A stretch of 16,452 nucleotides of DNA, from IMG/VR virus record IMGVR_UViG_2737471821_000008; one strand, 5' to 3'. Position 1 is the stretch's first letter. Each line of letters starts with the position of its first letter. Both the position numbers and the translations under genes were made by a program. This DNA is from a virus (Duplodnaviria; Heunggongvirae; Uroviricota; Caudoviricetes). The notes beneath the pieces are model-generated. The model was not told the DNA's origin, did no database searches, and saw nothing but the letters and a program-made list of their open reading frames with translations. Below are positions 1-15,888 of the stretch, piece after piece.

Positions 1-405
1 ATGGATCAGGTCGTTGTTTTTCAAAAGATGTTTGAGCAAGTGAGAAAAGAGCAAAACTTCTCCTGGTTTTATTCAGAATTAAAACATCACCGTATTGCAC
101 ATTACATTTATTATCTGGCTACGGATAACATCAGAATTATTACTCACGATGATACGGTTTTGTTATTAAGAGGAACCAGGAACCTGTTAAAAGTTAGTAC
201 GACCAAGAACCCTGCTAAAATAAAAGAGGCCGCATTGCTTCATATTTGCGGAAAATCTACATTTCGGGAATACTGTTCAACACTGGCAGGCGCGGGCGTT
301 TTCCGGTGGGTTACTGATGTTAATCATAACAAACGCAGTTACTACGCCATTGATAATACGCTTTTATATATTGAAGATGTAGAAAATAATAAACCATTAA
401 TCTAG
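1..405 (+). CDS. ycgX: DUF1398-family protein YcgX (chromosomal flank outside the prophage)
   Basis: Complete 134-aa ORF with ATG at position 1. I recognise the sequence as YcgX, and it sits next to iraM as in E. coli K-12. AT-rich. Confidence 0.6.
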   Translation: MDQVVVFQKMFEQVRKEQNFSWFYSELKHHRIAHYIYYLATDNIRIITHDDTVLLLRGTRNLLKVSTTKNPAKIKEAALLHICGKSTFREYCSTLAGAGVFRWVTDVNHNKRSYYAIDNTLLYIEDVENNKPLI

Positions 406-616
406 CTAAAGTTGGATACTTAAGAAATGCTTCATAATTCAGTAAGGCATTAGCATAATGGAAATAAAAGTGCAGAGACTATCTCTATGGATGATTAATA
501 CTGTCTTTTTATTGTCACCCATAAATAATCACCAGACTAATACTATCAACTTGATATTTGAAATGTGATCACTTGACTTTTGATACGTTATTTTATAACG
601 GTTAACATATTTATAA

Positions 617-662
617 AAACAACGGCCGTGCCACACGTCCGTTTCAATACTTAACGCACATG
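617..662 (+). repeat. Direct repeat copy 1 of an icd 3'UTR/terminator-like ~45-bp sequence
   Basis: By hand alignment 38 of 45 positions match 1481..1525 (aaacaacggNcgtg...ccgtttcaataNttaacNcacatg). No icd coding sequence follows this copy. Confidence 0.6.
621..643. terminator. Imperfect hairpin within repeat copy 1 (possible ycgX terminator)
   Basis: Arms AACGG/CCGTT plus CGTG/CACG with one mismatch and a CCA loop, followed by TTTCAATA. Weaker than copy 2. Confidence 0.35.
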
Positions 663-1104
663 TATTTTGGTTTAGTCATCATCCGGTTATATGTATTTTA
701 GCCAGGAACAGGTTAAATCATTCCTATATAACTCAAAAATTGAAACCTTATTCTCATGTCATGCTTATATTCATTATTATCGTTATATAAAAAGGCAACC
801 ATAATGTTTAGCAAATTGGCACAAAGTAGCATAAAGGCTATGTTTTAATTACAGGATGTTCAGTCATTTGAATGTATAACATTATAGCTAAACAAATCTA
901 AAACGAAGTCAATAATTTATTGCTTTCACAAAATCTCATTTTGTTTAACATCCATTGAGATTCCTTGCTTTAAATTTTATTTTATATAAGCCATCATTTT
1001 AATTAATTTATTTTTTTGAGGGGGGGGTAATATACTCATATGCAAAATCAAGAAATAAACATCCTAATGAACCATATTAAATACCGTGGGATAAGACATA
1101 ACAA

Positions 1105-1428
1105 ATGAAGTGGATAGTAATTGACACGGTAATTCAACCTACATGTGGTATATCTTTTTCAGCCATATGGGGTAATATGAAAATGATCATCTGGTATCAA
1201 TCTACTATATTTCTCCCTCCTGGCAGTATATTTACACCGGTTAAGTCTGGTATTATCCTTAAGGATAAAGAATATCCTATTACTATTTATCACATCGCAC
1301 CATTCAACAAGGATTTATGGAGTTTACTCAAAAGCAGTCAAGAGTGTCCTCCAGGAGAAAGCAAAATAACAAATAAATGTTTACATAATAGTTGCATTAT
1401 AAAAATATGCCCATATGGGCTCAAGTAA
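1105..1428 (+). CDS. iraM: Anti-adaptor protein IraM (stabilises RpoS by inhibiting RssB)
   Basis: 107-aa ORF with ATG start, [22 protein letters not shown]..., recognised as IraM. Lies between ycgX and the icd fragment as in K-12. AT-rich, about 38% GC on a sampled line. Confidence 0.7.
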
Positions 1429-1480
1429 TGGGCTTCATATAAATATGCTCGATATGCTATTAATAATATCCACATAAATA

Positions 1481-1525
1481 AAACAACGGGCGTGTTATAC
1501 GCCCGTTTCAATATTTAACACATGG
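1481..1525 (+). repeat. Direct repeat copy 2 (authentic icd 3'UTR and terminator)
   Basis: Immediately 3' of the icd stop codon (1531..1533 on the - strand). Pairs with 617..662. Confidence 0.6.
1485..1507. terminator. Bidirectional rho-independent terminator (icd terminator; also downstream of iraM)
   Basis: Stem AACGGGCGT / ACGCCCGTT with loop GTTAT. On the - strand it is followed by GTTTTATTTAT (U-tract), on the + strand by TTCAATATTT. Confidence 0.6.
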
Positions 1526-1530
1526 AGAGA

Positions 1531-1695
1531 TTACATGTTTTCGATGATCGCTTCACCAAACTCTGAACATTTCAGCAGCTTAGCGCCTTCCATCAGACGT
1601 TCGAAGTCATAAGTTACGGTCTTGGCATTGATTGCGCCTTCCATACCTTTAACAATCAGGTCAGCCGCTTCAGTCCAACCCATATGGCGCAGCAT
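1531..1695 (-). pseudogene. icdC: Displaced 3' fragment of isocitrate dehydrogenase gene (icdC-type), prophage attachment junction
   Basis: The - strand translates to [54 protein letters not shown], the Icd C-terminus. icd similarity ends abruptly at about 1695. No start codon or upstream icd sequence. Confidence 0.85.
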
Positions 1696-1928
1696 TAGTT
1701 AGATGACTAAATCATAACTATTTGACATAGCAACATAATTTTACTAATTTGCATATAACTCATTAGCTCTTAGCATTTCTATAACTCATTGATTATAAAC
1801 ATGTGTTTTTGAGTTTTGATAACCATTTTTAGCATAAAAATAGCTGTTAACATTTGCAGAAATTAAGATCAGAGAAAATTTTTACCCTGTAGGGTATTAC
1901 GTCTTAAATGTGACTTTAATAAACAATT

Positions 1929-2762
1929 TTATTTCTGTAATCGGTTTATATTAACGTAAAGCATCTCGATTAGTTCTTTTGCATTTTTACTATAGTGTAA
2001 TTCTCTATGACAATTCGGACAAAGGGCAACACAGTTATCTGTTGTATCAGCACCACCTGAAGACAGGGGAATTACATGATGCACTTCCAAATATGGGTTT
2101 CCATCATTTAAATAAAACGGAGCATTTTTACCACAGTTTTCACATATACCTTTACTTTGCTGTAAAATCCAAGCTTTTACCATCGGGTCTCGAACATAAA
2201 CTTTTTGTAGTCTTTCTACCTCAACTGGTTTCCTGGAGCCCTCGGGTTGACTCAACGTTTTCTTAATTAATTTACTAACCCTCATATTCAGAAGCGATTC
2301 ATCATCTGTAGGCTGTGAAAGCTCTGATAGTTCTCCACGTATTATAGACGCCCAAAAACTGTCACTATAAATTCCTGGAACATTTATCAATATTCGTTTC
2401 GTTCTATTGCCGGAAGGAATTTCCTTTCTCCCCGTACGACTAAAATAAGCCTGATAACCACACATCTTCAAGCGTATATCGCGGGGGCTATTACCAATCA
2501 AAGTAAAATATTCACCAGGATGGATTTTTCTTTCATCCAAAGAATGCATATGTTTTCTGACTGATGATGACGCCAGATATACTACGACTTGGGATACACC
2601 AGAATCAACCAACCGTTCAATGATATAATCAAGAGCGATATTGTAATCTTTGTTTCTGTCACCCGGCCCCCACGACTCAAGGATTAGACCATAAACACCA
2701 TCCTCTTCACCTATCGAGCACTCAGCTTTCAGTTCAATTCCATTATTATCAAAAACATGCAT
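1929..2762 (-). CDS. mcrA: 5-methylcytosine-specific restriction endonuclease McrA (HNH family)
   Basis: 277-aa ORF with ATG start. C-terminal HNH motif ...CENCGKNAPFYLNDGNPYLEVHHVIPLSSGGADTTDNCVALCPNCHRELH. Recognised as McrA. GC about 45% on sampled lines. Confidence 0.9.
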   Translation of the reverse strand: MHVFDNNGIELKAECSIGEEDGVYGLILESWGPGDRNKDYNIALDYIIERLVDSGVSQVVVYLASSSVRKHMHSLDERKIHPGEYFTLIGNSPRDIRLKMCGYQAYFSRTGRKEIPSGNRTKRILINVPGIYSDSFWASIIRGELSELSQPTDDESLLNMRVSKLIKKTLSQPEGSRKPVEVERLQKVYVRDPMVKAWILQQSKGICENCGKNAPFYLNDGNPYLEVHHVIPLSSGGADTTDNCVALCPNCHRELHYSKNAKELIEMLYVNINRLQK

Positions 2763-2868
2763 AATATTAATCTTTAATCAATTTTTCACGACAATACTAC
2801 TTTTATTGATAAAATTGCAACAAGTTGCTGTTGTTTTACTTTCTTTTGTACACAAAGTGTCTTTAACT

Positions 2869-3423
2869 TTATTTATCCTCTGCAGGAAACCTCTTATACA
2901 AAGTTGACACACCAACATCATAGATAATCGCCACCTTCTGGCGAGGAACTCCTGATGCAATTAATCGTCCGGCCTGTGCCCATTGTTCTGGTGTAAGTTT
3001 GGGACGACGTCCACCAATTCGCCCCTGTGCGCGAGCAGCTTCCAGTCCAGCTTTTGTTCGTTCAACAATCAGTTCACGCTCCATTTCAGCCAGGGCACCC
3101 ATCACATGAAAGAAAAAGCGTCCCATTGGTGTGCTGGTATCAATTGAATCCGTCAGACTACGAAAGTTGATGCCTCGTTCGCGCAACTCCTCCACCAACA
3201 CGACAAGATGCCGCATACTACGCCCCAGCCGATCCAGCTTCCAGACAACCAGAGTGTCACCTGCCGATAATGTCCTGAGCAGTTTTTTCAGTCCCGGCCT
3301 TTCGGACTTTGTGCCGCTTATCTTGTCTTCAAAAATCAGCTCGCATCCTGCACAGTTCAGCGCATTACGTTGTAGATCTGTGTTCTGGTCATTTGTTGAT
3401 ACGCGTACATAGCCAATAAGCAT
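2869..3423 (-). CDS. pinE: Serine DNA invertase Pin (Gin/Hin/Cin family)
   Basis: Start placed at the internal ATG giving MLIGYVRVSTNDQNTDLQRNAL... (184 aa), the typical invertase N-terminus with catalytic Ser in RVST. The ORF track begins 12 codons upstream at 3459. Confidence 0.9.
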   Translation of the reverse strand: MLIGYVRVSTNDQNTDLQRNALNCAGCELIFEDKISGTKSERPGLKKLLRTLSAGDTLVVWKLDRLGRSMRHLVVLVEELRERGINFRSLTDSIDTSTPMGRFFFHVMGALAEMERELIVERTKAGLEAARAQGRIGGRRPKLTPEQWAQAGRLIASGVPRQKVAIIYDVGVSTLYKRFPAEDK

Positions 3424-3477
3424 GGTAGCTCCCCCTGACAAAAGCAGGAATGATGCCATTTGCTCGTTATTTCTGCA

Positions 3478-3503
3478 TTTTCATAAACGTTGGTTTGGGA
3501 GAA
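3478..3503. repeat. Pin recombination (crossover) site, pin-proximal copy
   Basis: TTTTCATAAACG-TT-GGTTTGGGAGAA resembles the 26-bp gix/hix architecture. The inner half-site GGTTTGGGAGAA is a perfect inverted repeat of 5362..5373. Confidence 0.7.
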
Positions 3504-4022
3504 GGTGCTCCAGCTATTGGCGTTCCGTTCTTCTGGCCGTCCGCCGCAATGCCAAATACTGTAATCGACAGTTGGTCCAGTATGGTGTTTTTGAAGTTCA
3601 ACGGCGCGAAATTCTCTGCCACTGATTACCCTGTGCTGGCGAAAGTGTTTCCGGCGCTAGCATTACCTGACGCACGGGGTGATTTCATTCGTATCTGGGA
3701 TGATGGGCGCGGGATTGATGTCGGACGTACCCTACTTTCAGGGCAATCACACACAATTATGGATCATGCACACAATATGGAATTGTGGACGGGGGACGGG
3801 CTTGCCGCAGGAAGTGCACGGGAAGGAGTAAACCCAGGAATACTGGCTACATACGGTGACGGGGGAATAGTTAAAACGGACGAACCCGGTCTTAAGGTGC
3901 CTTCCTCACTACGAGCTCTTAGCTCTCGTAGTGTTAAACGTTATGGTGAAATTAGTGGAAATGTAGATACAGAAACCCGTCCACGAAATATTGCATTCAA
4001 CTTTCTGGTGAGGGCTAAATAA
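3491..4022 (+). pseudogene. stfE: Silent alternative tail-fibre C-terminal cassette (StfE-type variable domain), in-phase with the stfP constant region after inversion
   Basis: ORF 3450..4022 runs through the crossover site (…VGLGEGAP…) and ends …ETRPRNIAFNFLVRAK, a typical fibre C-terminus. The ATG at 3450 lies outside the segment and is not a real start. The core TT occupies codon positions 2 and 3 in both cassettes. Confidence 0.65.
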
Positions 4023-4615
4023 TGATACCTGTTTTTGATGAAAATGGGCTGGCTACAGTGCCGGGCGATATGCGTTGTTTTTATTATAATGCAGTAACGT
4101 ATGAATATACCGGCTGGTCTGATGAATATATTAATACTGGCGTAAGTATACCCGCCTGTTCCACTGGTATTGACCCGGGCGAAAACATCCCGGGAAAAGT
4201 GGCAGTATTTACGGGTAAGGGATGGAGCCATGAAGAAGACCATCGCAATGAGACCGTTTACTCAACTGAAAATGGCGCAGCTGTTACAGTGGATTATATC
4301 GGTGCCATCAAAGACGGTTATGTCACGCTTTCACCGTTAACGCCATACGATAAATGGGATGGTGAGAAATGGGTGACGGATACCGAGGCACAGCATAGCG
4401 CCGCAGTAGAAGCGGCAGAAGCACAGCGCCAGTCGCTGATTGATGCTGCAATGGCTTCCATCAGTCTGATTCAACTGAAATTACAGGCTGGGCGGAAGCT
4501 GACGCAGCCAGAAAACACCCGACTTAACGCTGTGCTGGATTACATTGACGCGGTGACGGCAACAGATACCAGCACAGCGCCGGATGTCATCTGGCCTGAA
4601 CTGCCGGAGGCGTAG
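4022..4615 (+). CDS. tfaE: Tail fibre assembly protein (alternative cassette partner)
   Basis: 197-aa ORF, ATG overlapping the cassette stop (TAATG). Tfa-family conserved C-terminus …TSTAPDVIWPELPEA. Confidence 0.8.
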   Translation: MIPVFDENGLATVPGDMRCFYYNAVTYEYTGWSDEYINTGVSIPACSTGIDPGENIPGKVAVFTGKGWSHEEDHRNETVYSTENGAAVTVDYIGAIKDGYVTLSPLTPYDKWDGEKWVTDTEAQHSAAVEAAEAQRQSLIDAAMASISLIQLKLQAGRKLTQPENTRLNAVLDYIDAVTATDTSTAPDVIWPELPEA

Positions 4616-5024
4616 GCCATTCAATATCTGGCGCACCGGAAGTATCGATCAGCTCCAGTGCGTCCAGATAATCCAGCCACAAATTATATTGCGCCAGTTC
4701 ATCACCTTTCAGACGACCAATAGCGGCTTTACCGGGCCATTGCTTACTGTTCATGTATTCGTTGGCCTGATTAAGCAATAATTGCCTTTCTGATTCTGCC
4801 TGTTGAATAAGTTCTTCATGTGATGGTGGAGGTATTAGTGCCCATGTGGGTAATCCATTTTTTCCTGCAACACGAATTTTGTCATCTGGAGGCGTATTGA
4901 TTGCAAATTCATTATAAACATCATCACTGACAGCCAGAGCATCATCTGGCCATGAATTTGCATTAATGTAATCATCCTTAAGTGCAGGATTCACAAAAAT
5001 GTTTAAAGATGGACTATAAAACAT
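4587..5024 (-). CDS. tfaP: Tail fibre assembly protein (expressed orientation)
   Basis: 145-aa ORF immediately after stfP (TAATATG junction). C-terminus …TSGAPDIEWPTPP is similar to TfaE. Its 3' end overlaps tfaE convergently over 4587..4615. Confidence 0.8.
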   Translation of the reverse strand: MFYSPSLNIFVNPALKDDYINANSWPDDALAVSDDVYNEFAINTPPDDKIRVAGKNGLPTWALIPPPSHEELIQQAESERQLLLNQANEYMNSKQWPGKAAIGRLKGDELAQYNLWLDYLDALELIDTSGAPDIEWPTPPAVQAR

Positions 5025-5025
5025 A

Positions 5026-5664
5026 TTACACCCCTATAGCGATATAACGACCTAATACAGCGTTTGCAGCAGTCGCTATGCTTGAAAAACCGCGGAACTG
5101 ATTTGATGTAATTGCAGAAGCCGACAGGATTCCTGCGCCTGAAGGTGTATGCCCCACATGACTAACTATCATTCCATAACATGCTGACGGAAAGGCAAAA
5201 GGAAAATCGTTAAGATATCCGGCATCTTCACCACCAGACCCACCAAATCTCGCCTGCCCCCACTGAATAATCAGTGTTCTCCGGGAACCTGAAATAATTA
5301 ACGGGATCGTTACATACCCATTCAGGCCAATGACACCCGATGCAGTGCCAGCCAGAGATAATTCTCCCAAACCAAGGTTTTCGAGAGCCGTTTTCACCGT
5401 GCCATCCGATTTGATATCGCCAAACGGATTCTTGCGGCTTAACAGCAGCGCACGAAGCGCGGTAAGCAGCTGGTCGTGCCGCCCCTTCTCCAGGCTGGCA
5501 CCGGATGCCTCCACCACGCTGCAAAGCTCCTCCTGCAACATGTCAAAGTAGTCATCATCCAGATCGGTGGCAGGCGTGCCGGTCTGGGGGTTACCACGGG
5601 TAAAACCGTTCTTACCCGCGCCGAACTTATCCTTCTGCGCGGTTTTCGTGTCTATACGATGCAT
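5026..5664 (-). CDS. stfP: Side tail fibre protein (constant N-terminus outside, variable C-terminus inside the invertible segment)
   Basis: 212-aa ORF with ATG start. N-terminus …GNPQTGTPATDLDDDYFDMLQEELCSVVEASG… is typical of phage fibres. The crossover site lies at codons …LENLGLGE. Confidence 0.8.
   Translation of the reverse strand: MHRIDTKTAQKDKFGAGKNGFTRGNPQTGTPATDLDDDYFDMLQEELCSVVEASGASLEKGRHDQLLTALRALLLSRKNPFGDIKSDGTVKTALENLGLGELSLAGTASGVIGLNGYVTIPLIISGSRRTLIIQWGQARFGGSGGEDAGYLNDFPFAFPSACYGMIVSHVGHTPSGAGILSASAITSNQFRGFSSIATAANAVLGRYIAIGV
5362..5387. repeat. Pin recombination (crossover) site, distal copy inside stfP
   Basis: TTCTCCCAAACC-AA-GGTTTTCGAGAG. Its reverse complement matches the 3478..3503 site. 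Confidence 0.7.
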
Positions 5665-5667
5665 GGA

Positions 5668-6252
5668 TTACTCCGGATATTTAAAAATTACGTAGGTATG
5701 CGACGGGCAGAGTTTGTTAAGCACACATTCGACAACTGTGTCGCCCCAGATACGCAGTGCGGAATCACAGGGATCGCCACATGTCATCCAGGTGGTGTTG
5801 GTGGCGGCTGGCATGTTGACCTGCCAGTAATACCGCCATTCAGGCGCGTTCACAGCGTCAGTACAGGCCGATGAGCAGGTGAACGTGCTTTTGTCGTATC
5901 GCTTGATGGTGGCATCTGGTCTGCCCAGGGCAGCAAGCTGTGCAAGATAAAAATCCTCGTTGATGCCGCCCGCCAGGTTAACCTTCGCATCCAGCCGTTG
6001 CTGACGCTGGCGAAGGGTCTGTGTCCCTGCGGGAATACATTCATCCGGCAGACCGCACAGACGCTCCCAGCGGTTTATCAGTTCAGTGGTGGTGCGCGGA
6101 TCCAGCTCCCGCATCAGGGCATCCGCACGCTGATGAACGCGGGTTAATGACGGTGCCGCACCGGCAATCGCCGGATCGCTGGCTGACCACGCCGGACCGG
6201 GGGGCAACAGTGCTGACAACAGACGGATGTAATCATCGTTTGTCACGTCCAT
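5668..6252 (-). CDS. ymfQ: Phage tail/baseplate protein YmfQ (DUF2313, Mu gp48-like)
   Basis: 194-aa ORF with ATG start, directly upstream of the fibre gene and overlapping the baseplate-J gene end. Recognised as YmfQ. Confidence 0.7.
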
Positions 6253-7301
6253 GAAATCGTCCCCAGTACCGCCAGTTCATTTTTTGCAATGGAGATATTG
6301 TCTGCCGGTGCAAGCAACTGATGGCTGTATTCCCCGTTCGCACCGGAAATCGCCTCACTGATACGCGATACCTTCAGTTCTCCCTGCGGATAACCATCAC
6401 GCAGCAGGAACGAACGCAACTCCGCGGTGATGGCAGCCCGTATTTCCGGTGTGTCCGGCGTCACACGGATATGAAAATCCACCGTATGTGCCACCGGCCT
6501 GAACACATACAAATCAGAGCCTGCCACCGGGGCCAGTGGCTCGATATGTTGTCTTGCCGCCGTTTCCGTTGATTCTTCCGGAATGGGATTAATCAGGTCA
6601 CTGCTGGCAATCATCACACCGACAGTTCCCGTTCCCATCCAGTGACGGTATGTCCATGCGCGGGTAATGCCGGGCACTTCTTTAGCCCAGACAACATAGT
6701 CCCCGTCAGCCCCGCCCTGCGGCGTCCAGTAATACCGCTCAATGACGCGGGCGCGCCACGTTTCCAGCTCTTCAGTATCAAATCCGCCTGTCAGGGTGTC
6801 AGCCACACCGGAAGACGGCAGACCATTCACCGGCGTGACCAGGATTAATGCCGTACCGTCGTCAGCATTACCGACCGCACCTGCACTTGAGCAGGCGATC
6901 GGCACGCGCAGGACACCACCGGAGCTGGTTGCATCGTCAGTTGTCGTGTACTGCACCAGGTCATCGCGCTGAATAACACTCCCGGCGGTCACCTTCAGGC
7001 CATCGCTGACACCTTCCCAGCGCATATACCCACTGGCAACCGTGGCTCCCTTGCGCGGACACCGTTTCATCGCAGCATGTCGCGCCAGCCAGGACTCATC
7101 GCACAGGTCAGGCAGCATGTTCATTGCCAGATAATCGATGTAACCGTAAACCGTATGCAGCGCCGCCGCATACACCTTTGCCCGCACGTCTTCATCCATG
7201 CGCCGGAGCGTGTCGCTGACGTCCAGCCTGGCGAATAAATCGTTACGGAGCATACTGATATTTTCTGCCAGCGTCGGGCGCTGAAATTCACTGTCCGCCA
7301 T
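6243..7301 (-). CDS. jayE: Baseplate J-like protein (Mu gp47 / P2 gpJ family)
   Basis: 352-aa ORF with ATG start. Position and size fit the baseplate wedge protein that precedes gp48-like and fibre genes. The symbol follows e14 nomenclature from memory. Confidence 0.7.
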
Positions 7302-7602
7302 GCGTTATCGCACTCCACAGATCATCAAAAGAAATCATTACCGGTCCGTCACGACGCCAGAGGGTGATACTGTTACCCAGTTCATTAATCCCGGTGCGGC
7401 GGATATCCAGATCAATACGGGACACCACGCCGTCATCAATCATCCATTGCAGGCATTCGCGGATACCCGCCCCGGCAGCGCCCAGAGCAAGGCTGGAGAC
7501 TTCTTTCTGAAACCCCTTAAGCTGACGCTGCATACCTTTAAGCGGGCCGGACAGCCTGTCAACGGCGGTGATGATGGCTTTCAGCTGAAAATTATCAGCC
7601 AT
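7288..7602 (-). CDS. Short chimeric ORF: tape-measure-like N-terminus joined to an unrelated C-terminus (probable deletion product)
   Basis: Strong SD (GAGGAG, 7-nt spacer) and ATG. N-terminus MADNFQLKAIITAVDRLSGPLKG fits the usual tape-measure start, but the ORF is only 104 aa and its end overlaps the baseplate-J start. Confidence 0.4.
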   Translation of the reverse strand: MADNFQLKAIITAVDRLSGPLKGMQRQLKGFQKEVSSLALGAAGAGIRECLQWMIDDGVVSRIDLDIRRTGINELGNSITLWRRDGPVMISFDDLWSAITHGGQ

Positions 7603-8010
7603 GCTTCATCTCCTCATTTATACGGACGGCCTCTGCCTCCAGATCAGCAAAGTGGGAAATAGCCGTCCGGCGAAGTTCAAGGGGGTTTAATTTCCAGAAC
7701 CACGCGACATTGTAGAATCGCTTCCGGAGGTCTCTTCCGTCTCCAAGCCGGTAAAAAAACGCATTACAATCATGCCTGCCTTGAAAATATCCAGCTTCGT
7801 CATCTGCGCTGCAGACGAGCGCGGGATCCCGGCCAGAAGCGGGATATATTTCAGCGCTACCTGACTGTCCATTTTCATACCACCATCAGGTGAAACAGAG
7901 AAAGGGAACCCCAGCGCCTCAATCTCGTCATACGTAGGCTCACGTATTTCCAGCACATGCAGTGTTTCTTTGTGGGCGATGATCGGTTTTTTAAGTACAA
8001 GCTCAATCAC
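7595..8010 (-). CDS. Tail assembly chaperone, long form made by -1 programmed frameshift (G/GT or E/E' type)
   Basis: From the slippery site the -1 frame stays open for 52 codons (YRLGDGRDLRKRF…EEMKHG*) and stops at 7595..7597, just inside the next gene start. This is the standard chaperone to tape-measure layout. Confidence 0.45.
7687..8010 (-). CDS. Tail assembly chaperone, short form
   Basis: 107-aa ORF. Its first codon is GTG, overlapping the tube gene stop (GTGA). Sits between the tube and tape-measure positions. Confidence 0.5.
   Translation of the reverse strand: MIELVLKKPIIAHKETLHVLEIREPTYDEIEALGFPFSVSPDGGMKMDSQVALKYIPLLAGIPRSSAAQMTKLDIFKAGMIVMRFFTGLETEETSGSDSTMSRGSGN
7753..7759 (-). 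other. Slippery heptamer U-UUU-UUU for -1 ribosomal frameshifting
   Basis: Coding strand CGT TTT TTT ACC (R F F T) in the chaperone 0-frame, 22 codons before its stop. Confidence 0.45.
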
Positions 8011-8363
8011 TGGTAATCCCCTTCTTCACCGTGGAACTCAAGATCAACCGTGCCTTCTTCGGCATTATGGTTCGCTTCGCCGTGCAGCCAGGCAGACGAC
8101 AGTACATAGACCTGACCGTTCGCCAGCTCGGCAGTGATGGTCATCTCATCAGACGAGGTGATTTTGCTCACCGGAAAATTCTTCGGCACCTTGAAGGTCC
8201 CTTTGACATAGGGCGCACGGTGAGTTTCCTTGCGGTCCACTGAACCGTCCAGGCCGATGATGTCATCATTGACCGTCCTGTTCATGGGCACCTCAATGCC
8301 GCCGGTCAGCGATAGCTGCTGACCGTCAATTTTGAAATAACAGGTTCCCCCGATACGGGCCAT
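8007..8363 (-). CDS. Tail tube protein (Mu gpM-like)
   Basis: 118-aa ORF with ATG overlapping the sheath stop (TAATG). Size and position immediately after the sheath gene. Confidence 0.6.
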   Translation of the reverse strand: MARIGGTCYFKIDGQQLSLTGGIEVPMNRTVNDDIIGLDGSVDRKETHRAPYVKGTFKVPKNFPVSKITSSDEMTITAELANGQVYVLSSAWLHGEANHNAEEGTVDLEFHGEEGDYQ

Positions 8364-9859
8364 TATGCAGACTCCTCTGAATACTGAAGACGGAACTGGT
8401 TAACCACGGCAAAGACACGCAACTGGTTAACATAGTCAGGCGGGAACAGCGTGTTCAGGCGGTTCGGATCGCTGGCATCACGCTCCACAACCAGGTACTG
8501 CTTAAACAGTTCGTAGTTTTCCACGATCCCCGCACGCTCAAGCTGACGGTAGGTTGCCAGCAGTTCCCCTTTGATCACCGCCGGGGTGACAATCGCCTGA
8601 CCGGGACCAAAGCGGGTACCGTCACTGGCAAGCTTGTGACGCCCGTACTTACTGGTAATGACGGATTTCAGTTTGCGCAGTACATACGCGCTGGTATGCA
8701 GTGTCTCACTGTCGAGGTAGCTGTTATCCGCAACCCCGTAAGCGTTTTTCCTGTACGTGGTGACATCACGCTGAATGCGCAGTACCCCGCTTTCGACATA
8801 CGCCGTTGCCACGCCATGAGACAGCAGGGTCTGTTGTTCGGTCATCGTGAACCGTTTCCCCTTCGGCGCAGGCAGCATACCCACCATCTCACCGGTCTGC
8901 GTGGGACGTGCCGGATCGTTGCGGATAAACACCGCTGCGCGGGCGGTACGGCTGGCTGCCAGCTCGTCGGCAGGCGTCTGGGTCTCTTTTTCGTACCCCG
9001 CCAGGGTGATGTGCTGCTGGTTAAACTGGTCACCTGCGTTCACCAGTTCTGACAGTGTGCCGGCCTTTGCCGTATACACATGACCATACAGCTGACGCGC
9101 ATAGCTCCAGCGACCGCTGGTATCGTTCATCTCGGTCACCAGCGTGTTAACAGAGGCCGTGTCGTTGAACGGCAGACCGATATAATCAAACGGCTCATCC
9201 GCCATTGCAGCCACCGCGCCGGTGAGAACCGGAGCGCCCGTTCCGGCGGTCCCCGTCGCCACGGCAATCTGTACGCCCGCTGGCAGCACTTCGCCCCCAC
9301 CGAAGCCGTAGTAATTGAGGCTGACAGGAATTTCATTCCCGCAAAGCCCCTTATGGCGAGCGGTCAATGTAACCACACCAGCCGAAGATGAGGCCGTAAA
9401 CGGCAGGGCCGGAACGGCATTGATGGCATCTTTGATACTGCTGGCAATCGTCGCGACGTTATCGCCGTTGGTCACCGGTGCCTGCACGCGGGTACGTCCC
9501 ACATAAACATTCACCGTGCCGGTTTCGGTTGCTGCCCCGGTCACCGTCAGCGTAACTGTTGCCGCCGCGCCTGTGGATTCAGGAACGGCAATCACATACA
9601 GCTCGCCAAACGGGTCAGTCTGGCGATAAGCCTCGACCATACGCGCCAGCTGACTTCCCGCACCACAAATCTGGCGTGCATAGTCTGCCGACGGCATCAG
9701 TACCAGACTGTTGGCAACAATCTCTGCACCGTTATTGGCATGACCAATCAGCAGCGATGCTCCGCTGTCCTGTGCAGTATTCGCCGCCTGATTATCCATT
9801 TCCGCATAAAACAGCGGAACCAGCGTATTCGACGGAATGGTGTTAAAGCTTATCGTCAT
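8363..9859 (-). CDS. Contractile tail sheath protein (Mu gpL-like)
   Basis: 498-aa ORF with ATG start, MTISFNTIPSNTLVPLFYAEMDN…, of the size and character of Mu-type sheath proteins. Confidence 0.8.
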   Translation of the reverse strand: MTISFNTIPSNTLVPLFYAEMDNQAANTAQDSGASLLIGHANNGAEIVANSLVLMPSADYARQICGAGSQLARMVEAYRQTDPFGELYVIAVPESTGAAATVTLTVTGAATETGTVNVYVGRTRVQAPVTNGDNVATIASSIKDAINAVPALPFTASSSAGVVTLTARHKGLCGNEIPVSLNYYGFGGGEVLPAGVQIAVATGTAGTGAPVLTGAVAAMADEPFDYIGLPFNDTASVNTLVTEMNDTSGRWSYARQLYGHVYTAKAGTLSELVNAGDQFNQQHITLAGYEKETQTPADELAASRTARAAVFIRNDPARPTQTGEMVGMLPAPKGKRFTMTEQQTLLSHGVATAYVESGVLRIQRDVTTYRKNAYGVADNSYLDSETLHTSAYVLRKLKSVITSKYGRHKLASDGTRFGPGQAIVTPAVIKGELLATYRQLERAGIVENYELFKQYLVVERDASDPNRLNTLFPPDYVNQLRVFAVVNQFRLQYSEESA

Positions 9860-10013
9860 CGGTGTTCACCTTTTTATTCACGCGCCGGATATCACCCGCT
9901 ACTTCACGGCGCAGCCAGTAGTTGTTCTCGTCAACATTTCGCCCTTCGGCGGGCAAAAGGTCGCCGCGGGCAGGGTCAGGAACTGACCGCCCTTTAACAG
10001 GTTTGACAAACAT
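9843..10013 (-). CDS. Small conserved Mu-like tail-module protein (DUF2635-like); absent from the ORF track (under 60 aa)
   Basis: Hand translation gives 56 aa, MFVKPVKGRSVPDPARGDLLPAEGRNVDENNYWLRREVAGDIRRVNKKVNTDDDKL*. SD GAGGA sits 5 nt before the ATG. Overlaps the sheath start by 17 nt. Confidence 0.4.
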   Translation of the reverse strand: MFVKPVKGRSVPDPARGDLLPAEGRNVDENNYWLRREVAGDIRRVNKKVNTDDDKL

Positions 10014-10021
10014 GAGGATCC

Positions 10022-10582
10022 TCAGGAAGGAAGGGTTATTTCGGTGTGATGTTCGATATCGCCGTCAGGCCCGTTACCGGGCTCGAGATAATCAACATCA
10101 ATCGCCAGCGTTTGCAGTTCATCCAGACTGTTCAGATCATCCTGCTGGCGGGTATCGTCTTCAGTCAGCTCGCTGATGACCGAAAAATCGAACTGATAAA
10201 TCAGCTCATGACGATTCAGATCCAGCAGCGTGCCGCCGTCATAGGTAATCGGGTTACCGCACGCTTCCGGGTTCCAGCCCAGCAGGGCCTTAAAGAGCAT
10301 CTGCCGGACATCGTCCACCACATCATACGAGGCAAACTGACCGCGCTCATCACGCCCGTTACTCAGTATGACAACCACGGAGAAGCCCTCTTTCAGCTCC
10401 TGCCAGTAGTCGGTCTGGCTTTTGTTTTCTCCCGGAGAGTCATCACCCGGTACCACATACGCCGCCGGGAGTCTCAGCTTTCCGACCTCCGGCAGATTTT
10501 TGAACTGGGCCGCGCCTGCCACCCGGTTTTCAAAATACGGGCAGCGGGCACGCAGCGCAGCAATAACAGGCGTCAGTTTCAT
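10022..10582 (-). CDS. Virion morphogenesis / head-tail joining protein (Mu gp37-like)
   Basis: 186-aa ORF, MKLTPVIAALRARCPYFENRVAGAAQF…, with ATG overlapping the upstream remnant stop (ATGA). Position matches the gp36-gp37-gp38-sheath order. Confidence 0.5.
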   Translation of the reverse strand: MKLTPVIAALRARCPYFENRVAGAAQFKNLPEVGKLRLPAAYVVPGDDSPGENKSQTDYWQELKEGFSVVVILSNGRDERGQFASYDVVDDVRQMLFKALLGWNPEACGNPITYDGGTLLDLNRHELIYQFDFSVISELTEDDTRQQDDLNSLDELQTLAIDVDYLEPGNGPDGDIEHHTEITLPS

Positions 10583-10674
10583 CTGTGTCGTCGCTCCGGC
10601 TTCAGTGATTTACGCAATTCCCGCGCCAGAAAATAGCGTGTCCAGCTGCGGTTCTTTTCAAGAGTTTCCACCAT
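10579..10674 (-). pseudogene. C-terminal remnant of the gene preceding gp37-like (deletion scar)
   Basis: Only about 31 codons (…MVETLEKNRSWTRYFLARELRKSLKPERRHR*) are plausible protein. Upstream in the same frame the translation is low-complexity (GGAKRRRSHHRGASGGSG). Confidence 0.3.
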
Positions 10675-10789
10675 GAAGTTATTACGTGGAGCCAGTCGCC
10701 AGCCGCTGCCACCGGATGCACCACGATGATGACTACGACGACGTTTTGCTCCTCCCCGGACACCAAAAAACAGAAATGCCGGATAGAAG

Positions 10790-11110
10790 TCACCAGAGAT
10801 CATCCGGTTCGCGCAGACCGTCTTCACGGCCTTTACGCAGGAAGCCCACAAACGCCTCTTTATGCTCGGTGGCCAGTTTATTTTGCGCTCCACCAGCCGG
10901 ACGTTTCAGCTCAAGCAGCTCTTTTTCAAGGTCGCTTTTGAGATTTTCCAGCTCGCTGAGTTTCCCGTTCAGGGTTTCCACCTGCCCGGCAAGCTTGCCT
11001 TTTTCCTGCTCAATCGCATCCACGCGCTTGTCGTTCTTTGCTTTGAAGTCGTCAAACTTCTGCTGCAGCTCCTGCGCGACCTGTTCGACATCTTTAATAT
11101 CAACCGCCAT
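10790..11110 (-). pseudogene. Major capsid protein, N-terminal fragment only (HK97-type delta domain)
   Basis: Strong SD (AGGAGA) and ATG right after the protease gene. 106 aa of coiled coil (…VETLNGKLSELENLKSDLEKELLELK…EHKEAFVGFLRKG) then a premature stop. No capsid body is encoded downstream in any frame. Confidence 0.55.
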
Positions 11111-11124
11111 CGTATTTCTCCTGA

Positions 11125-11775
11125 TTAGAAGTTCAGATTTTTCAGTGCATTCAGTGCAGAGCCCACATCCTCAGCGTCGCGCAGGGACAGTGCGCCATAG
11201 CCCCCGGCCATGAATGCTTTGGCCTGGGTACGGGAGAGTCCGACATCACGCAGGACTCTTTCGATTTTTTTCTGTTCGGGGATTTCCCCGCGGGCCAGTG
11301 CGTTCTTGACGTCGCTGATCCGCGCCTCGTCGTTAGACGGGAACGTCACCAGGCTGACTTCCCAGAGGTCGATTTCTTTCAGCAGAAAGGCTTCTTTGCT
11401 CCGGTCGTATTCCCAGTCTTTCAGGACGTACCCAATAGAAAGGCCGGTTAACGAACCGGCCTTCATGTGTGCATGTGCGCGTTTTGCGAGGGGATCATCA
11501 TCAATAAGCAACCGTCCCCTGACGTAAAGCCCGACATCGTCTTCCTTCATTTCGGTGTAAACACCGATGGGTTCATCCATGCGGTGCTGCCAGAGCAGCG
11601 CAGGTAACGCTTTTCTGTCACTCCACGCCCGCAGGGAAGCAGCAAATGCCCCGGACATCACCACATCATCGTGGCTGTCCTTTACACCAAAGACGGAGCC
11701 ATACCCTTCAAACTCACCGGAGTCACTGACAGATTTCAGACTCAGCGGTACATCAAGACGTTGTTTCGTCTGCAT
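11125..11775 (-). CDS. Prohead protease (HK97 family)
   Basis: Start placed at MQTKQRLDVPL… because SD AAGGA precedes it. The track's start at 11811 has no SD and overlaps the portal by 59 nt. Confidence 0.7.
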   Translation of the reverse strand: MQTKQRLDVPLSLKSVSDSGEFEGYGSVFGVKDSHDDVVMSGAFAASLRAWSDRKALPALLWQHRMDEPIGVYTEMKEDDVGLYVRGRLLIDDDPLAKRAHAHMKAGSLTGLSIGYVLKDWEYDRSKEAFLLKEIDLWEVSLVTFPSNDEARISDVKNALARGEIPEQKKIERVLRDVGLSRTQAKAFMAGGYGALSLRDAEDVGSALNALKNLNF

Positions 11776-12994
11776 TGGCGTTATCCTTCTGCTTACCGGC
11801 TTTACTGCCATCGGAGGGTTTCGTGGTCATGTTCATCGGTGTGAGATAGACATCACCACCGGGACGCGGATTCATATCTTCCAGGTCGCGGCAGTCATTG
11901 GGAGAGTAAATTCCCCAGTTGATCCCGGTGGCGTAGGCTTCAAAACGGGACTTCATATCCCCGCGCAGTAACGCCCCGGCGTTAAATTTGGCGTAATAAA
12001 CGCCCTGCTTACTTTTTCGTACCAGTCCGGTGTTGATCCGCTGTTCGATGCGGGTCAGATACGGCACCAGTGAATAGTTGATAAATCCCAGCCCCAGCTC
12101 TTCGATATTGTTGAAGGTGGCGCGATCGGTGTTCTGCACCATGTGCAACGGCACCCGGAACAGACGACAGATTTCTTCAAGCTGAAACTTGCGGGTTTCC
12201 AGGAACTGGCTGTCCTCGGCGTTCAGCGCCATCGACTTCCAGTCCAGCCCCATCTCAAGGATCATCGGGCGGTGAGCATTGCCAAGCCCGGTGTGACGCT
12301 CCTCAAAATCTTTCTTCAGGCGCTCATAAGCCTGATCTGACAGCGTCTGCTCTGTACGCAACACACCCGACGTCACCGCGCCATTGCTGAACAGTCTGGC
12401 CCCGTGCTCTTCGGTCGCAGCTGCCAGCGATATTGCCTCGCGGGCATAGGCGATGGGATTCAGCCCCACCAGTCCGTCCAGCGTCAGCGTGCGCACATGC
12501 CAGATATCCTCCTGGCTCAGTACATCCGTGGAGCCATCCGGGAATGTGACCTGATAGATCGGCTCCCAGCTACTGTTAAGCTTCGGTACCACACAGCCGG
12601 GATCGACAGGCAGCAGTTCAGCCACTTCGCCAAATGCTTTCACTTTGTAGGCGTAAAAGTTTCCCCGCAGGCACAGACAGGTGACCACCAGCTCCCAGAA
12701 CTCCTGCGGCGTCATATAGCCATTGGGATGCGTGGAGATCAGTTTATGCAGACGTTCGCCGGTGGCTCTCTGCTTCAGGCTGCCGTTCAGGTGATACAGA
12801 TTGCAGGGCAACATCCCGACCGACTCTGCCAGCACTCTGACGCAGGAAAAAACCGCCGTCAGTCGCATGGCCCGCTGACTGCTGATCTGCTTTCCGGTAT
12901 AGGTGTCGTAGGACAACCCGATGGCATCCGCCAGCTCTGCTGGCGTGGTCACCGGTGCGTCACTTTTTCGTTGAAATAATCCCGAAAAGAACAC
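11753..12994 (-). CDS. Portal protein (HK97 family)
   Basis: 413-aa ORF with GTG start preceded by GGAGG (6-nt spacer), overlapping the stop of the upstream small gene. Portal-family conservation throughout (…PIAYAREAISLAAATEEHGARLFSNGA…). Confidence 0.85.
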   Translation of the reverse strand: MFFSGLFQRKSDAPVTTPAELADAIGLSYDTYTGKQISSQRAMRLTAVFSCVRVLAESVGMLPCNLYHLNGSLKQRATGERLHKLISTHPNGYMTPQEFWELVVTCLCLRGNFYAYKVKAFGEVAELLPVDPGCVVPKLNSSWEPIYQVTFPDGSTDVLSQEDIWHVRTLTLDGLVGLNPIAYAREAISLAAATEEHGARLFSNGAVTSGVLRTEQTLSDQAYERLKKDFEERHTGLGNAHRPMILEMGLDWKSMALNAEDSQFLETRKFQLEEICRLFRVPLHMVQNTDRATFNNIEELGLGFINYSLVPYLTRIEQRINTGLVRKSKQGVYYAKFNAGALLRGDMKSRFEAYATGINWGIYSPNDCRDLEDMNPRPGGDVYLTPMNMTTKPSDGSKAGKQKDNANADETTS

Positions 12995-13176
12995 TATTTA
13001 CCTCCACCAACAGACAGCTGTGTACGGTCGAGATATCGCGCTACCAGCCACGACCAGAACAGGCACAACGCCCCGGCAACAACAAACCCCGCCGGGGGAT
13101 AAATCAGCCAGGCACCATACGCCAGCAAAAGCGCCCCCAGCACGCCCACCAGAGGCGCGAGAATCAGCATGATCAT
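12994..13176 (-). CDS. ymfR: 60-aa predicted two-helix membrane protein between terminase and portal (YmfR-like)
   Basis: ATG with [67 protein letters not shown] has two hydrophobic stretches. Symbol from memory of e14 YmfR (60 aa). Confidence 0.5.
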
Positions 13177-13187
13177 AATTACCTCAG

Positions 13188-14921
13188 TTAAAGCGAGCGG
13201 ATCCCATAGGACTCAATGTGGTCAGACAGCGTGTCTTCTTTCTCGTACAGCATGGCTCTGCCAACCGCCATAATCAGCGCAACTGCACCGTCAATTTTGT
13301 TTTCCGCCTGCTCTTTGACGGGTTTCACCACATCATCGTTACCCGGAATGGTTTTGCCGACCACATTGCCGATACACCAGGTCATGATGGGATTGCCATC
13401 ATGATGAAAGCGCCCCGATTCAATTGCCGCTTCCAGCTCTTTCATCGGGTCGGACATGTTGGTGTAGTTCTGAATGATAGTGACGGGATTCAGGTCTTCA
13501 TCAGCAAGGTCATGTGACAACCCGGTCGCCCCGAAGGGGTCGATGGGTGACTCACTGACCGGGCTGATTTTGTTCGCCGCTTTGGCCTCCTCGAGGATGT
13601 AGCGATAATCCACCTCCGCACCATCGGTAACGGTCAGAACGCCCATTTCCACCCATTTCTGAAAGCGTTCGGCTGTCCGGCGATCTTCATTTTTCTCGAC
13701 GCTGTACACCGTGTCATACGGTACCCAGAAGCGCGGAGCCACACTGTAGTAATGCGTTTTACCGTCAATCTCGCGGGTATAAAGTCGCGCCATGCTGTTC
13801 ATATCCAGCTTACGCGCCAGGTCAAAGGCCAGAATGCACGGTTGCCCCTCGAACTGCTCAAGGGTCAGTGATTTATCCTCGCAGCTCTGCCAGCTCACCA
13901 GGTTGAAATACGCCGAACGCGCCGACACCCAGATATTGAGGTGTTTTGTTTTAAAGACGTTTGCCAGACGGGCGTTATTTTTCGCACGCTGCTGCTGACT
14001 TAACAAAAATTCGCGATAAACCGACACGCCAATATTCGGGTTAGCTTTTTCCAGCACCTGCGGGTCGGTCCAGTCATCGCCTTCGTCAACGGTATAGATG
14101 ATCCCGAACAGTTCATCGTTGGGTACCGAACCGTTGAGCATCTCGATAACTTCCCGCCGCTTGTCGTAGCACGGCCCCTCAATGTTGTACCCGGCGGTGG
14201 TGATGGCCCACATCAGTGGCTGACGTCGCGCGCCCATCCCGGTAAGCATCGTGGTATAAAGCGCATCGGTGGCGTGCTCGTGATATTCATCCACCACCGC
14301 ACAGTGGGGTGATGAACCATCACCGGGGTTACCGATCAGCGGTTCAAACCGCGCGCCATCCTCCGGACGGTTCATGTTTGAGGCGTTAACCTCAATCCCG
14401 AACGCTTCCGTCAGCATGGGTGTGCGTTTACACATCAGTCGCGCCGGGCGAAAGACTTCCCACGCCTGTTTCTCTGTCGTGGCACCGGAATACACTTCCG
14501 CGCCAAACTCGTTATCACAGGCAAAACAATACAGGGCAACACCGGCAGAGATTGCCGATTTGCCGTTCTTACGGGGGATTTCGGTATACACCTCCCTGAA
14601 GCGGCGCAGCCGGGAGCCTTTATTGACCCAGCCAAACGCACAGCAGATCACAAAGAGCTGCCACGGTTCCAGCGTGATGGGCATCCTCTTGAATGCCCAC
14701 TCCCCCTTGGTGTGTGGCAACAGCTGAATAAATTTCGCGGCCCGTTCAGCCAGGTCCTTGTCGAAGCGGTAACGAAACGACTTACTTTTTTCCGCCATCA
14801 GGTCATCAAGATGGCGCTGGCAGGCCTGAATCACAAACTGGCAGGCCACAATCTTTCCGCGCACGACATCACGGGCATACTGATTGGCAGCATTTACGTT
14901 GGGGTAAGATTTCCGGCTCAT
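13188..14921 (-). CDS. Terminase large subunit
   Basis: 577-aa ORF with ATG overlapping the TerS stop (ATGA). N-terminal ATPase region (…[18 protein letters not shown]…AVVDEYHEH…) and C-terminal nuclease domain. Confidence 0.9.
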
Positions 14922-15412
14922 GATTCGATGATTTTCAGAAACGGGTTAGTGGCTTTCTTCTGCCCCGCCAGGCCAATCAGACGCTGGCGGCTGCTGGGGT
15001 CGAGTCCGAGCATTGCCCCCGTGCTGCTCATCTCGGACTCCTGTTCTTTCTTGGCGGTCAGCTCCGGATTTTTGACCATGCCACCCATTGCACCGGTGAT
15101 GGTGTTGCCCTGTCTGGCAATATTTTTCACGGCACGCCGCCAGAACTCGTAGGCCACGCACCACCGCTCAAGCACCGCGAGGTCAGTCACGCACAGCAGG
15201 CCCTGACCGCAGAGTTCTTTGGTTGTCAGTTGCCACATGATCGTGGCGAGAGGGAGATCTTCTTCAGCGAACCACTCCGGTGGCTCAACACCTTTGATGG
15301 GCGTAAAAACAGGTTCATCTTTATTCAGGGCTCGCTTGCCGGGGTTTCCGGCCAGCGCCTTGCGCGCCGTTGGCTTGGGGCGACGCCCGGAACGCCCCGC
15401 CGTTCCAGCCAT
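14918..15412 (-). CDS. Terminase small subunit (P27 family)
   Basis: …[34 protein letters not shown]… is the P27-family signature. I chose the ATG at 15412 (SD AGGAG, 8-nt spacer) rather than the track's GTG at 15421. Confidence 0.7.
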
Positions 15413-15462
15413 ATGCGGCACTCCTGGTTAAATTTCATTTTTCGCGGGTATAAAAAAACGAT

Positions 15463-15511
15463 GGGGCGGGCAGTCCGGAAGACGTCAGGTCACAGGGATT
15501 TGACCCGCCCC
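15463..15511. other. GC-rich inverted repeat in the HNH-TerS intergenic region (candidate cos / packaging-initiation region)
   Basis: GGGGCGGG at 15463..15470 and CCCGCCCC at 15504..15511 flank a 33-bp spacer containing the palindrome GACGTC. A T7 run follows on the - strand. Confidence 0.3.
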
Positions 15512-15537
15512 TCCCCTCTGGCAGTGGGAACTGGTTC

Positions 15538-15888
15538 TTACTTAATCCGTTCACGGGCCGTCTTCGCCTTATGACACGGCCAGCACAGACTCTGCAGATT
15601 ACAGTCGGCATCAGTGCCGCCATGCGCTTTAGGGATGATGTGGTCAACAGTTTTCGCCTCACGCACCACACCAGCGCGCAGACATAACTGACATAAACCT
15701 TTGTCACGTTTCAGCACACGCGCGCGGATAACGTCCCACTTCGAACCGTAGCCGCGCTGATGACGGGATTGTCCTGGCTTGTATTGCTTCCAGCCTTCGC
15801 TTTTGTGGCTTTCGCAATAACCTGACGGGTCAGTGGTGGTACGGCGGCACCCGCGAACACGGCAGGCTTTTGGAGTTCGTGGTGGCAT
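15538..15888 (-). CDS. HNH endonuclease (packaging-associated)
   Basis: 116-aa ORF with ATG start, Cys-rich with the motif …DHIIPKAHGGTDADCNLQSLCWPCH…. Immediately upstream of TerS as in HK97-like packaging modules. Confidence 0.85.
   Translation of the reverse strand: MPPRTPKACRVRGCRRTTTDPSGYCESHKSEGWKQYKPGQSRHQRGYGSKWDVIRARVLKRDKGLCQLCLRAGVVREAKTVDHIIPKAHGGTDADCNLQSLCWPCHKAKTARERIK

Follow-up and report, generated by a model that had tools for sequence, protein, structure and literature searches.

The DNA analysed here, referred to as the window, is the whole 16,452-nucleotide (nt) stretch of IMG/VR virus record IMGVR_UViG_2737471821_000008. Its tail module contains an open reading frame (ORF) of 104 amino acids (aa), which was found to be the scar of a 5,043-bp deletion. 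Judged from its sequence, the window covers the right-hand two-fifths of an e14-type prophage that sits in icd of an Escherichia coli strain and is closely related to the Shigella phages SfIV, SfV and SfI. Window 1-3505 shared 99.2% identity with the ycgX-iraM-icdC-mcrA-pinE region of K-12, which is the right end of e14 plus its flank, indicating an e14-type prophage in icd. A 54-aa icd remnant (icdC) was encoded at window 1531-1695, at attR, with an Iso_dh match at the same position in sister contigs, and the pin, invertible fibre and mcrA genes of e14-type prophages were all present. Its early region is lambdoid, its head module HK97-like and its contractile tail module Mu-like, and in the window the HK97-type head and packaging genes were followed by the Mu-type contractile tail genes (Pfam; 97.1-97.9% nucleotide identity to phage SfIV).

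All relevant genes of the window lay on the minus strand. Read from right to left, they comprised a 168-aa ORF, an HNH endonuclease gene, cos, the small and large terminase genes, ymfR, the portal and prohead protease genes, a 106-aa capsid stub, the tail terminator, DUF2635, sheath, tube and tail assembly chaperone genes, the 104-aa ORF, the baseplate J and YmfQ (Mu gp48-like) genes, the invertible fibre and fibre-assembly genes, pin, mcrA, and the host genes icdC, iraM and ycgX. The main reference was the intact 39.4-kb prophage of E. coli PSS-08-2 (NZ_AP027679.1), which occupies the same icd site, between icd and icdC; alignments used 21 kb of the intact relative (L002). The tail module of the window contained the following features.

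5668..6252, minus strand: YmfQ / Mu gp48-like gene (PF10076), intact
6243..7301, minus strand: Baseplate_J / Mu gp47-like gene, 352 aa (PF04865, 1e-52), intact
7288..7602, minus strand: 104-aa chimeric ORF, tape measure (1-46)::gp46 (84-141), with ATG start; scar of the 5,043-bp deletion
7288..7464, minus strand: remnant of the gp46-type baseplate wedge gene, codons 84-141 plus stop (tblastn 7464..7291, 100%)
7464..7465: deletion junction 1, with TA microhomology (2 nt) and no inserted bases; the fused plus strand reads GATACC (7462-7467)
7465..7602, minus strand: tape-measure remnant, codons 1-46 (tblastn 7602..7465, 100%)
7603..7686, minus strand: spacer between chaperone and tape-measure genes, with GAGGAG (7615-7610) and most of the -1 frame extension
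7687..8010, minus strand: tail assembly chaperone gene, 107 aa (PF10109, Phage_TAC_7, 1e-7)
8007..8363, minus strand: tail tube gene, intact (Pfam Tail_tube; 100% identical to L002)
8363..9859, minus strand: tail sheath gene, intact (Pfam Phage_sheath; 100% identical to L002)
10022..10582, minus strand: tail terminator gene (PF23840), intact

A preliminary description of the window, made from the sequence alone, had noted a 104-aa ORF with a strong Shine-Dalgarno sequence running into the baseplate J gene. This ORF was present as described: its ATG (7602-7600) lies 7 nt downstream of GAGGAG at 7615-7610, and its last 14 nt overlap the start of the J gene, a native overlap that is the same in L002. 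The description had also called the ORF chimeric and proposed that aligning 7288..7602 to an intact e14-like prophage would locate the junction, and the alignment placed it at 7464/7465. The ORF was an exact in-frame concatenation, the first 46 aa being those of the L002 tape measure (635 aa) and the last 58 aa those of the L002 gp46 (141 aa). The C-terminal partner, unnamed in that description, is gp46, which is thus broken as well as the tape measure.

An internal deletion of several kb had been suspected at this place. Compared with the intact prophage of PSS-08-2, inserted at the same site, 5,043 bp (3 x 1,681) were missing and nothing was inserted. Window 5362-7465 was 99.9% and window 7464-10810 was 100% identical to PSS-08-2, the two blocks being 5,043 bp apart in the intact copy; in L002, the flanking blocks extended up to 3959 on the left and from 9001 on the right. 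Since 5,043 is a multiple of three, the ORF reads exactly as tape-measure codons 1-46 followed by gp46 codons 84-141. The losses comprise codons 47-635 of the tape measure and codons 1-83 of gp46, together with the DNA-circularisation, hub and spike (V) genes, and the deleted 5-kb segment was present with 98.3% identity in the plaque-forming phage SfIV. The tape-measure and hub genes had been reported missing, and indeed, when the L002 tape-measure, DNA-circularisation, hub, spike and gp46 proteins were compared with the window by tblastn, only tape measure 1-46 and gp46 84-141 were recovered; no ORF of the window resembled a full tape measure, DNA-circularisation protein, hub or spike.

The 104-aa ORF, as its sequence reads, holds no complete domain of either parent. 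The PF10145 (PhageMin_Tail) domain of the intact tape measure of ~635 aa lies at aa 88-290, and the ORF retains only aa 1-46, without the domain. The GP46 profile (PF07409) was matched at positions 60-100 of 101 only, with 29.5 bits against a cut-off of 28.6, whereas intact gp46 scored 113 bits over positions 1-100. The 104-aa protein was the sole member of its 90%-identity cluster, and no full-length relative was found in a search of 5.8 billion sequences. The preliminary description would have been contradicted by a conserved full-length family with a tape-measure gene elsewhere in the element; the partial GP46 match, the singleton cluster and the absence of both a full-length homologue and a tape-measure gene from the search and the window, respectively, speak against such a family and such a gene. 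Because the ribosome-binding site and start of the tape measure and the native gp46 stop overlapping the J start are retained, the ORF is probably still translated. It is a by-product of the deletion.

Upstream of the scar, the chaperone gene carried the slippery heptamer T_TTT_TTT at 7759-7753, and its -1 frame was open for 52 codons up to a TGA at 7597-7595, 6 nt inside the 104-aa ORF, giving a predicted product of 138 aa. A gene of the chaperone family 5' of the tape measure, the heptamer and a -1 ORF reaching the tape-measure start were thus all found, and the arrangement is the classical one (lambda G/GT, P2 E/E+E' type), with a frameshift product predicted. Such chaperone layouts are linked to -1 frameshifting in these families. 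The arrangement had been described as intact, and its sequence was 100% identical to that of the intact relative. Assembly of sheath and tube in contractile tails requires the tape measure, the hub, the spike and whole gp46. Besides sheath and tube, a working contractile tail or tailocin has a tape measure, a hub, a spike and the whole wedge; this gene set was incomplete in the window, and the tube and sheath are left without a tape measure or hub to assemble on.

The capsid truncation mentioned in the preliminary description was also real and resulted from a second deletion, of 2,138 bp. The head and packaging region contained the following features.

10790..11110, minus strand: truncated major capsid ORF, 106 aa, of 100 native plus 6 out-of-frame codons (tblastn, major capsid protein aa 1-101)
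10809..10810: deletion junction 2, 2,138 bp missing, out of frame, with TC/GA microhomology
11125..15888, minus strand: intact head and packaging genes, namely prohead protease, portal, ymfR, large and small terminase, and HNH endonuclease (116 aa, 15538..15888) (Pfam)
15463-15472: cos 10-mer, located in the window with the sequence from PMC3636060

Junction 2 joins capsid codon ~100 to codon 93 of a 168-aa neck/tail-completion gene. The lost DNA held the capsid gene from codon 101 onwards, a 66-aa gene, the genes for the head-tail connector and for head closure, and neck codons 1-92. Head formation needs the capsid protein and the connectors. From the known need for tape measure, hub, spike, capsid and connectors, we infer that the element is unable to make heads or tails. 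At the right end of the window, a 168-aa ORF (15946-16452) lies 5' of the HNH gene and reaches the window end; it had no Pfam match and was conserved across all sister contigs, and PSS-08-2 has iss and lysis genes in its place.

Junction 1 was found neither in the 5,426 complete E. coli genomes of RefSeq (megablast, 300 bp across the junction) nor among the GTDB species representatives (exact 41-mer scan), indicating that the allele is rare. Carriers were found through exact-protein look-up alone; GCA_003775145.1 and GCA_013074845.1 are examples. An identical 104-aa protein has a database entry as an E. coli 'hypothetical protein' and was encoded on at least 10 E. coli contigs, drawn from three draft assemblies at NCBI and from several sequencing runs of independent samples; the junction is therefore no assembly artefact. 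Three carrier contigs were 100% identical to the window over 11,091 bp, with both deletions present. Two sister contigs (L003 and L008) had junction 1 together with further losses, of window 7832-8469 and 9039-15749, which take out the tube gene, all packaging genes and some of the sheath gene. The allele defines a small lineage with stepwise, continuing decay, in keeping with the word 'decaying' in the preliminary description. That decay continues in this lineage argues against maintenance of the leftover tail genes. In L003, the positions concerned were 9216-9222 and 9772-9783, and this contig was also deleted from the O-like gene to DUF968.

The remaining part of the window carried the right arm of the element.

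~1696: attR boundary, adjoining the icd remnant at 1531-1695
1696..5664: right arm, with mcrA, pin, the invertible fibre segment, and fibre and fibre-assembly genes
1929..2762: mcrA (HNH McrA, Pfam)
2869..3459: pin (Resolvase and HTH_7, Pfam)
3485-5380: invertible fibre segment (1.9 kb), with 19-nt inverted repeats at 3485-3503 and 5362-5380

The element had been said to keep pin, the fibres, mcrA and the packaging genes, and all of them were located in the window. The fibre segment was flipped in the window relative to L002 and to the otherwise 100%-identical contigs L004-L006, so both orientations occur; the window orientation gives a 212-aa fibre and the other a 273-aa fibre. Despite its defects, the element thus still undergoes Pin inversion or did so until recently.

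Compared with e14 of K-12 (genes ymfT, oweE/aaaE, ymfR, beeE, jayE, ymfQ, stfP, tfaP/tfaE, stfE, pinE and mcrA), the window has the same icd site and host flank, shares icdC, iraM, mcrA and pinE, and is 97-98% identical in the terminase, portal, J and ymfQ backbone. Both elements were disabled by internal deletions leaving chimeric pseudogenes. However, K-12 e14 has one 12.7-kb deletion from portal to J and another from a replication gene to terminase, whereas the window has two smaller deletions elsewhere and keeps the terminase, portal, protease, tail terminator, sheath, tube, chaperone and full J genes. The window copy was damaged independently and has decayed less than K-12 e14; it is more complete but defective nonetheless, and represents an intermediate stage of decay. 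The PSS-08-2 prophage has the locus and gene order of the window and 99.9-100% identity on both sides of deletion 1, but carries the 5,043-bp and 2,138-bp segments and has the invertible fibre segment in the opposite orientation. The structural modules of the Shigella flexneri serotype-converting myoviruses SfIV, SfV, SfI and SfII were 97-98% identical to the window, and they share the order of tape measure, DNA-circularisation, hub, V, gp46, J and gp48 genes. Unlike the window, these are viable plaque-formers at thrW without the deletions, carrying O-antigen modification genes in place of pin and mcrA. A relation of e14 to the Shigella myoviruses SfV and SfI has been reported (PMC3636060). 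The tail and baseplate genes of phage Mu (gp41/42 chaperone, gp42 tape measure, gp43-gp48) match the window in gene order and Pfam families (Phage_TAC_7, GP46, Baseplate_J and Phage_Mu_Gp48), but this similarity is at family level only, and the head, packaging and early regions of the window element are not Mu-like.

A homologue search with the 104-aa fusion as query, which returned no full-length relatives, gave ~26 distinct E. coli chimeras ending in the gp46 C-terminus. The gp46 part started at codon 84 in 7 of the 26 distinct proteins and at codon 50/51 in 5-7 of them; in a simulation of random endpoints, seven starts at one codon had a P of about 2e-5. At the DNA level, six different junctions at codon 83/84 fell within 1 nt, always to ...TA^TCCGCGAATGCC (the caret marks the point of joining), with tape-measure codon 46, the tape-measure 3' end, sheath, a DUF2570 lysis gene, RusA and ymfT as partners. 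At codon 50/51, four partners were joined to ...TA^CCTGGCC. The two gp46 positions together had at least 10 different partners, joined within 1-3 nt (L002 3955-3966 and 4055-4066; loci L013-L023), and each of these hot spots follows a G5-G6 run and crosses at TA. Reciprocal fusions that retain gp46 aa 1-83 and have lost the downstream side also exist, indicating that the gp46 site is used in both directions. Thus, the gp46-side endpoint of deletion 1 is one of a small set of repeatedly used deletion sites in this prophage family.

Other sites of the family were reused as well. The ymfT site CCGGATA^ (L024 11546-11552) had three partners, and the site CAGGGTA^ in the O-like replication gene (L024 12736-12742) had five, one being the oweE/aaaE scar of K-12. 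In the beeE/jayE scar of K-12, GGTA^CC was joined to GGGTA^TATGCGC, the latter being 11/12 identical to the gp46 codon-84 site, so that both K-12 e14 scars lie at GGTA- or GRTAYC-like sites (L011 10402; 12132-12139). About 14 of the 21 junctions examined at the DNA level crossed at TA, whereas TA accounts for 4.6% of dinucleotides. If one mismatch is allowed, GRTAYC fitted 10/12 native TA break sites versus 19.5% of all TA-centred hexamers in the prophage. This statistic is post hoc, the junctions that gave the motif being those it was tested on, and microhomology inflates it. Of the two junctions held out, L026 fitted (GGTACT, TACT) and L025 fitted partly. Deletion 2 of the window and the two extra deletions of L003 crossed elsewhere than at TA.

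The tape-measure-side endpoint in the window fell exactly at the end of GGGGCGGGTA (window 7464-7473), an inverted 9/10 copy of the cos 10-mer and one of only two such 9/10 copies in the 21 kb of the intact relative. The 12-mer TATACCCGCGAA (window 15441-15452) lies 10 nt from cos, and the gp46 codon-84 site was 11/12 identical to it. With at most two mismatches, this 12-mer had 6 copies in L002 versus 1.05 expected, mostly on the coding strand, at 3950-3961 (the gp46 codon-84 hot spot), 12904, 15631, 16112, 17445 and 19116.

Further rearrangements were seen near these sites. The gp46 variants P0017-P0022 (L002 4060-4110) were frameshifted between a GGCGGCGGGCGG stretch and a G6 run and then came back in frame, which indicates indel-prone homopolymers or sequencing errors beside the codon-50 hot spot. 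The variant P0126 had an in-frame 60-nt deletion within gp46 between two ATATCCGC direct repeats (L002 3890-3960), the first of which is the codon-84 hot spot. In L017 (a contig of GCA_910664985.1), the O-like hot-spot site was joined to the J gene in inverted orientation, so the same sites take part in inversions besides deletions.

Several candidate causes of the hot spots were tried and rejected. For self-targeting by the Cas3 nuclease of a type I-E CRISPR (clustered regularly interspaced short palindromic repeats) system, no matching spacer was found in the arrays of the 5,426 genomes (repeat-spacer-repeat query), and the one-way polarity from the protospacer-adjacent motif is contradicted by the reciprocal fusions keeping gp46 aa 1-83. 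For a hairpin or cruciform, the DNA at the hot spots folded no better than shuffled sequences. By inspection, the native pix sites cross at AA in TTCTCCCAAACC-AA-GGTTT, unlike the hot spots, which speaks against pseudo-sites of Pin; likewise by inspection, the Chi-like octamers beside both hot spots are on the deleted side, wrong for RecBCD protection. The e14 att core was unrelated to the hot spots.

The window is very probably part of an e14-type prophage disabled by two deletions, in which the 104-aa ORF is a by-product and the gp46 endpoint belongs to the recurrently used sites. Deletion 1 would have arisen by illegitimate recombination that joined tape-measure codon 46 in frame to gp46 codon 84 across a 2-nt TA, taking away the tape-measure body, the DNA-circularisation gene, hub, spike and the front of gp46, and deletion 2 by a similar event that would have cost the element the greater part of the capsid gene, the genes of the head-tail connector and a portion of the neck gene. 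With flanks 100% identical to intact relatives, the deletions are recent, which is why the surviving genes are intact; these genes are not necessarily being maintained. Some points weigh against this account. The median number of matching places in E. coli genomes with such sequence was 2, and the missing parts might be provided in trans by another SfV-like prophage outside the window; that the carriers are 100% identical says nothing about selection; and expression of the fusion ORF is predicted from its intact start signals. That the 104-aa fusion or the whole shortened tail module has been domesticated, for example as a decoy poisoning superinfecting SfV-like tails or for keeping J-fibre translation, is very improbable; nothing pointing to a function of the fusion was found, and nothing favours domestication of the structural genes. 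Deletion 1 is in frame, the strong start and the native stop/start overlap with J are retained, and several isolates carry the allele, all of which would suit a domesticated gene; but one third of deletions are expected to be in frame by chance, the fusion lacks any complete domain, the sequence-identical carriers show no sign of selection, neighbouring tail genes are still being lost in the sister contigs, and other fusions at gp46 codon 84 have unrelated or out-of-frame N-termini. A bare ORF map might also be read as showing no deletion at all, but an assembly error or a naturally short-tailed layout whose tape measure is encoded elsewhere. We regard this as extremely unlikely, considering that the junction was recovered independently in three NCBI assemblies and several assemblies of SRA runs, that the 2 nt shared at the junction are too short for an assembler error, that every intact relative, including phages SfIV, SfV, SfI and SfII, has the 5-kb segment, and that tblastn did not find the missing genes in the window.

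How the recurrent breakpoints arise bears on the formation of deletion 1, and a dedicated enzyme would complement the account of two disabling deletions, not replace it. With roughly even chances, no such enzyme is involved, and the junctions are microhomology joins at a few fragile sequences, such as TA after G-runs, formed at stalled forks or breaks, with only those deletions being seen that keep the arm from J to mcrA. All junctions had 2-8 nt of microhomology, some junctions of the family lacked TA, both gp46 hot spots follow G5-G6 runs that are frameshift-prone in P0017-P0022, and P0126 lost its 60 nt between two direct repeats. However, matches of 2-5 nt number thousands in a 39-kb prophage, so that nucleotide-exact reuse remains unexplained by microhomology, and neither gp46 site had a significant hairpin (z = -1.3 and 0.0). 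It is possible, with less probability, that an enzyme breaks the DNA at short, roughly palindromic, TA-centred GRTAYC-like sites and the ends are joined across TA; candidates are the HNH endonuclease of the prophage acting with terminase in an abortive induction, a type II topoisomerase (gyrase subunit-exchange model) and a recombinase. The published gyrase motif is long and degenerate, and we know of no nicking specificity for this HNH enzyme. The predominance of TA crossings, the fit to GRTAYC, the reuse of the ymfT and O-like sites with different partners, K-12 scars included, the coincidence to the base of the tape-measure endpoint with a near-copy of the cos 10-mer and the likeness of the gp46 site to the 12-mer beside cos all argue for an enzyme. 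HNH enzymes whose genes adjoin those of terminase nick DNA site-specifically, with recognition of 3-7 bp, for example CG^GT (PMC3592412), which also speaks for this type of candidate. Against an enzyme, the motif was tested on the junctions from which it came, microhomology alone makes partner sites resemble hot spots, one of the two held-out junctions fits partly only, and deletion 2 and the extra L003 deletions are not at TA; in addition, the actual nick context at cos, GGCA^GT, has no TA at its centre, the type I-E version found no matching spacer, and the reciprocal fusions show the site used both ways. The HNH-terminase nuclease in a failed induction may be the most attractive enzyme candidate, but plain microhomology joining at fragile TA steps after G-runs is at least as likely as this packaging nuclease. 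The broader proposal that decay of e14/SfV-type prophages is non-random, with deletions starting at TA-centred GRTAYC-like sites cut by a specific enzyme, is put forward as a speculative one that is rather unlikely to hold.

The scar is a new allele in one more defective copy of a well-known cryptic prophage family, and as such an instance of ordinary prophage decay, at a stage part-way from a viable SfV-like phage to e14 of K-12. The recurrence of breakpoints, in which independent deletions reuse the same few nucleotide positions, is a separate and more interesting lead. If an enzyme is indeed the cause, the window scar, both e14 scars of K-12 and dozens of chimeric ORFs would come from one mechanism, which would explain the many unrelated-looking E. 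coli 'hypothetical proteins' sharing the gp46 C-terminus and would offer a concrete, testable route by which prophages become cryptic.

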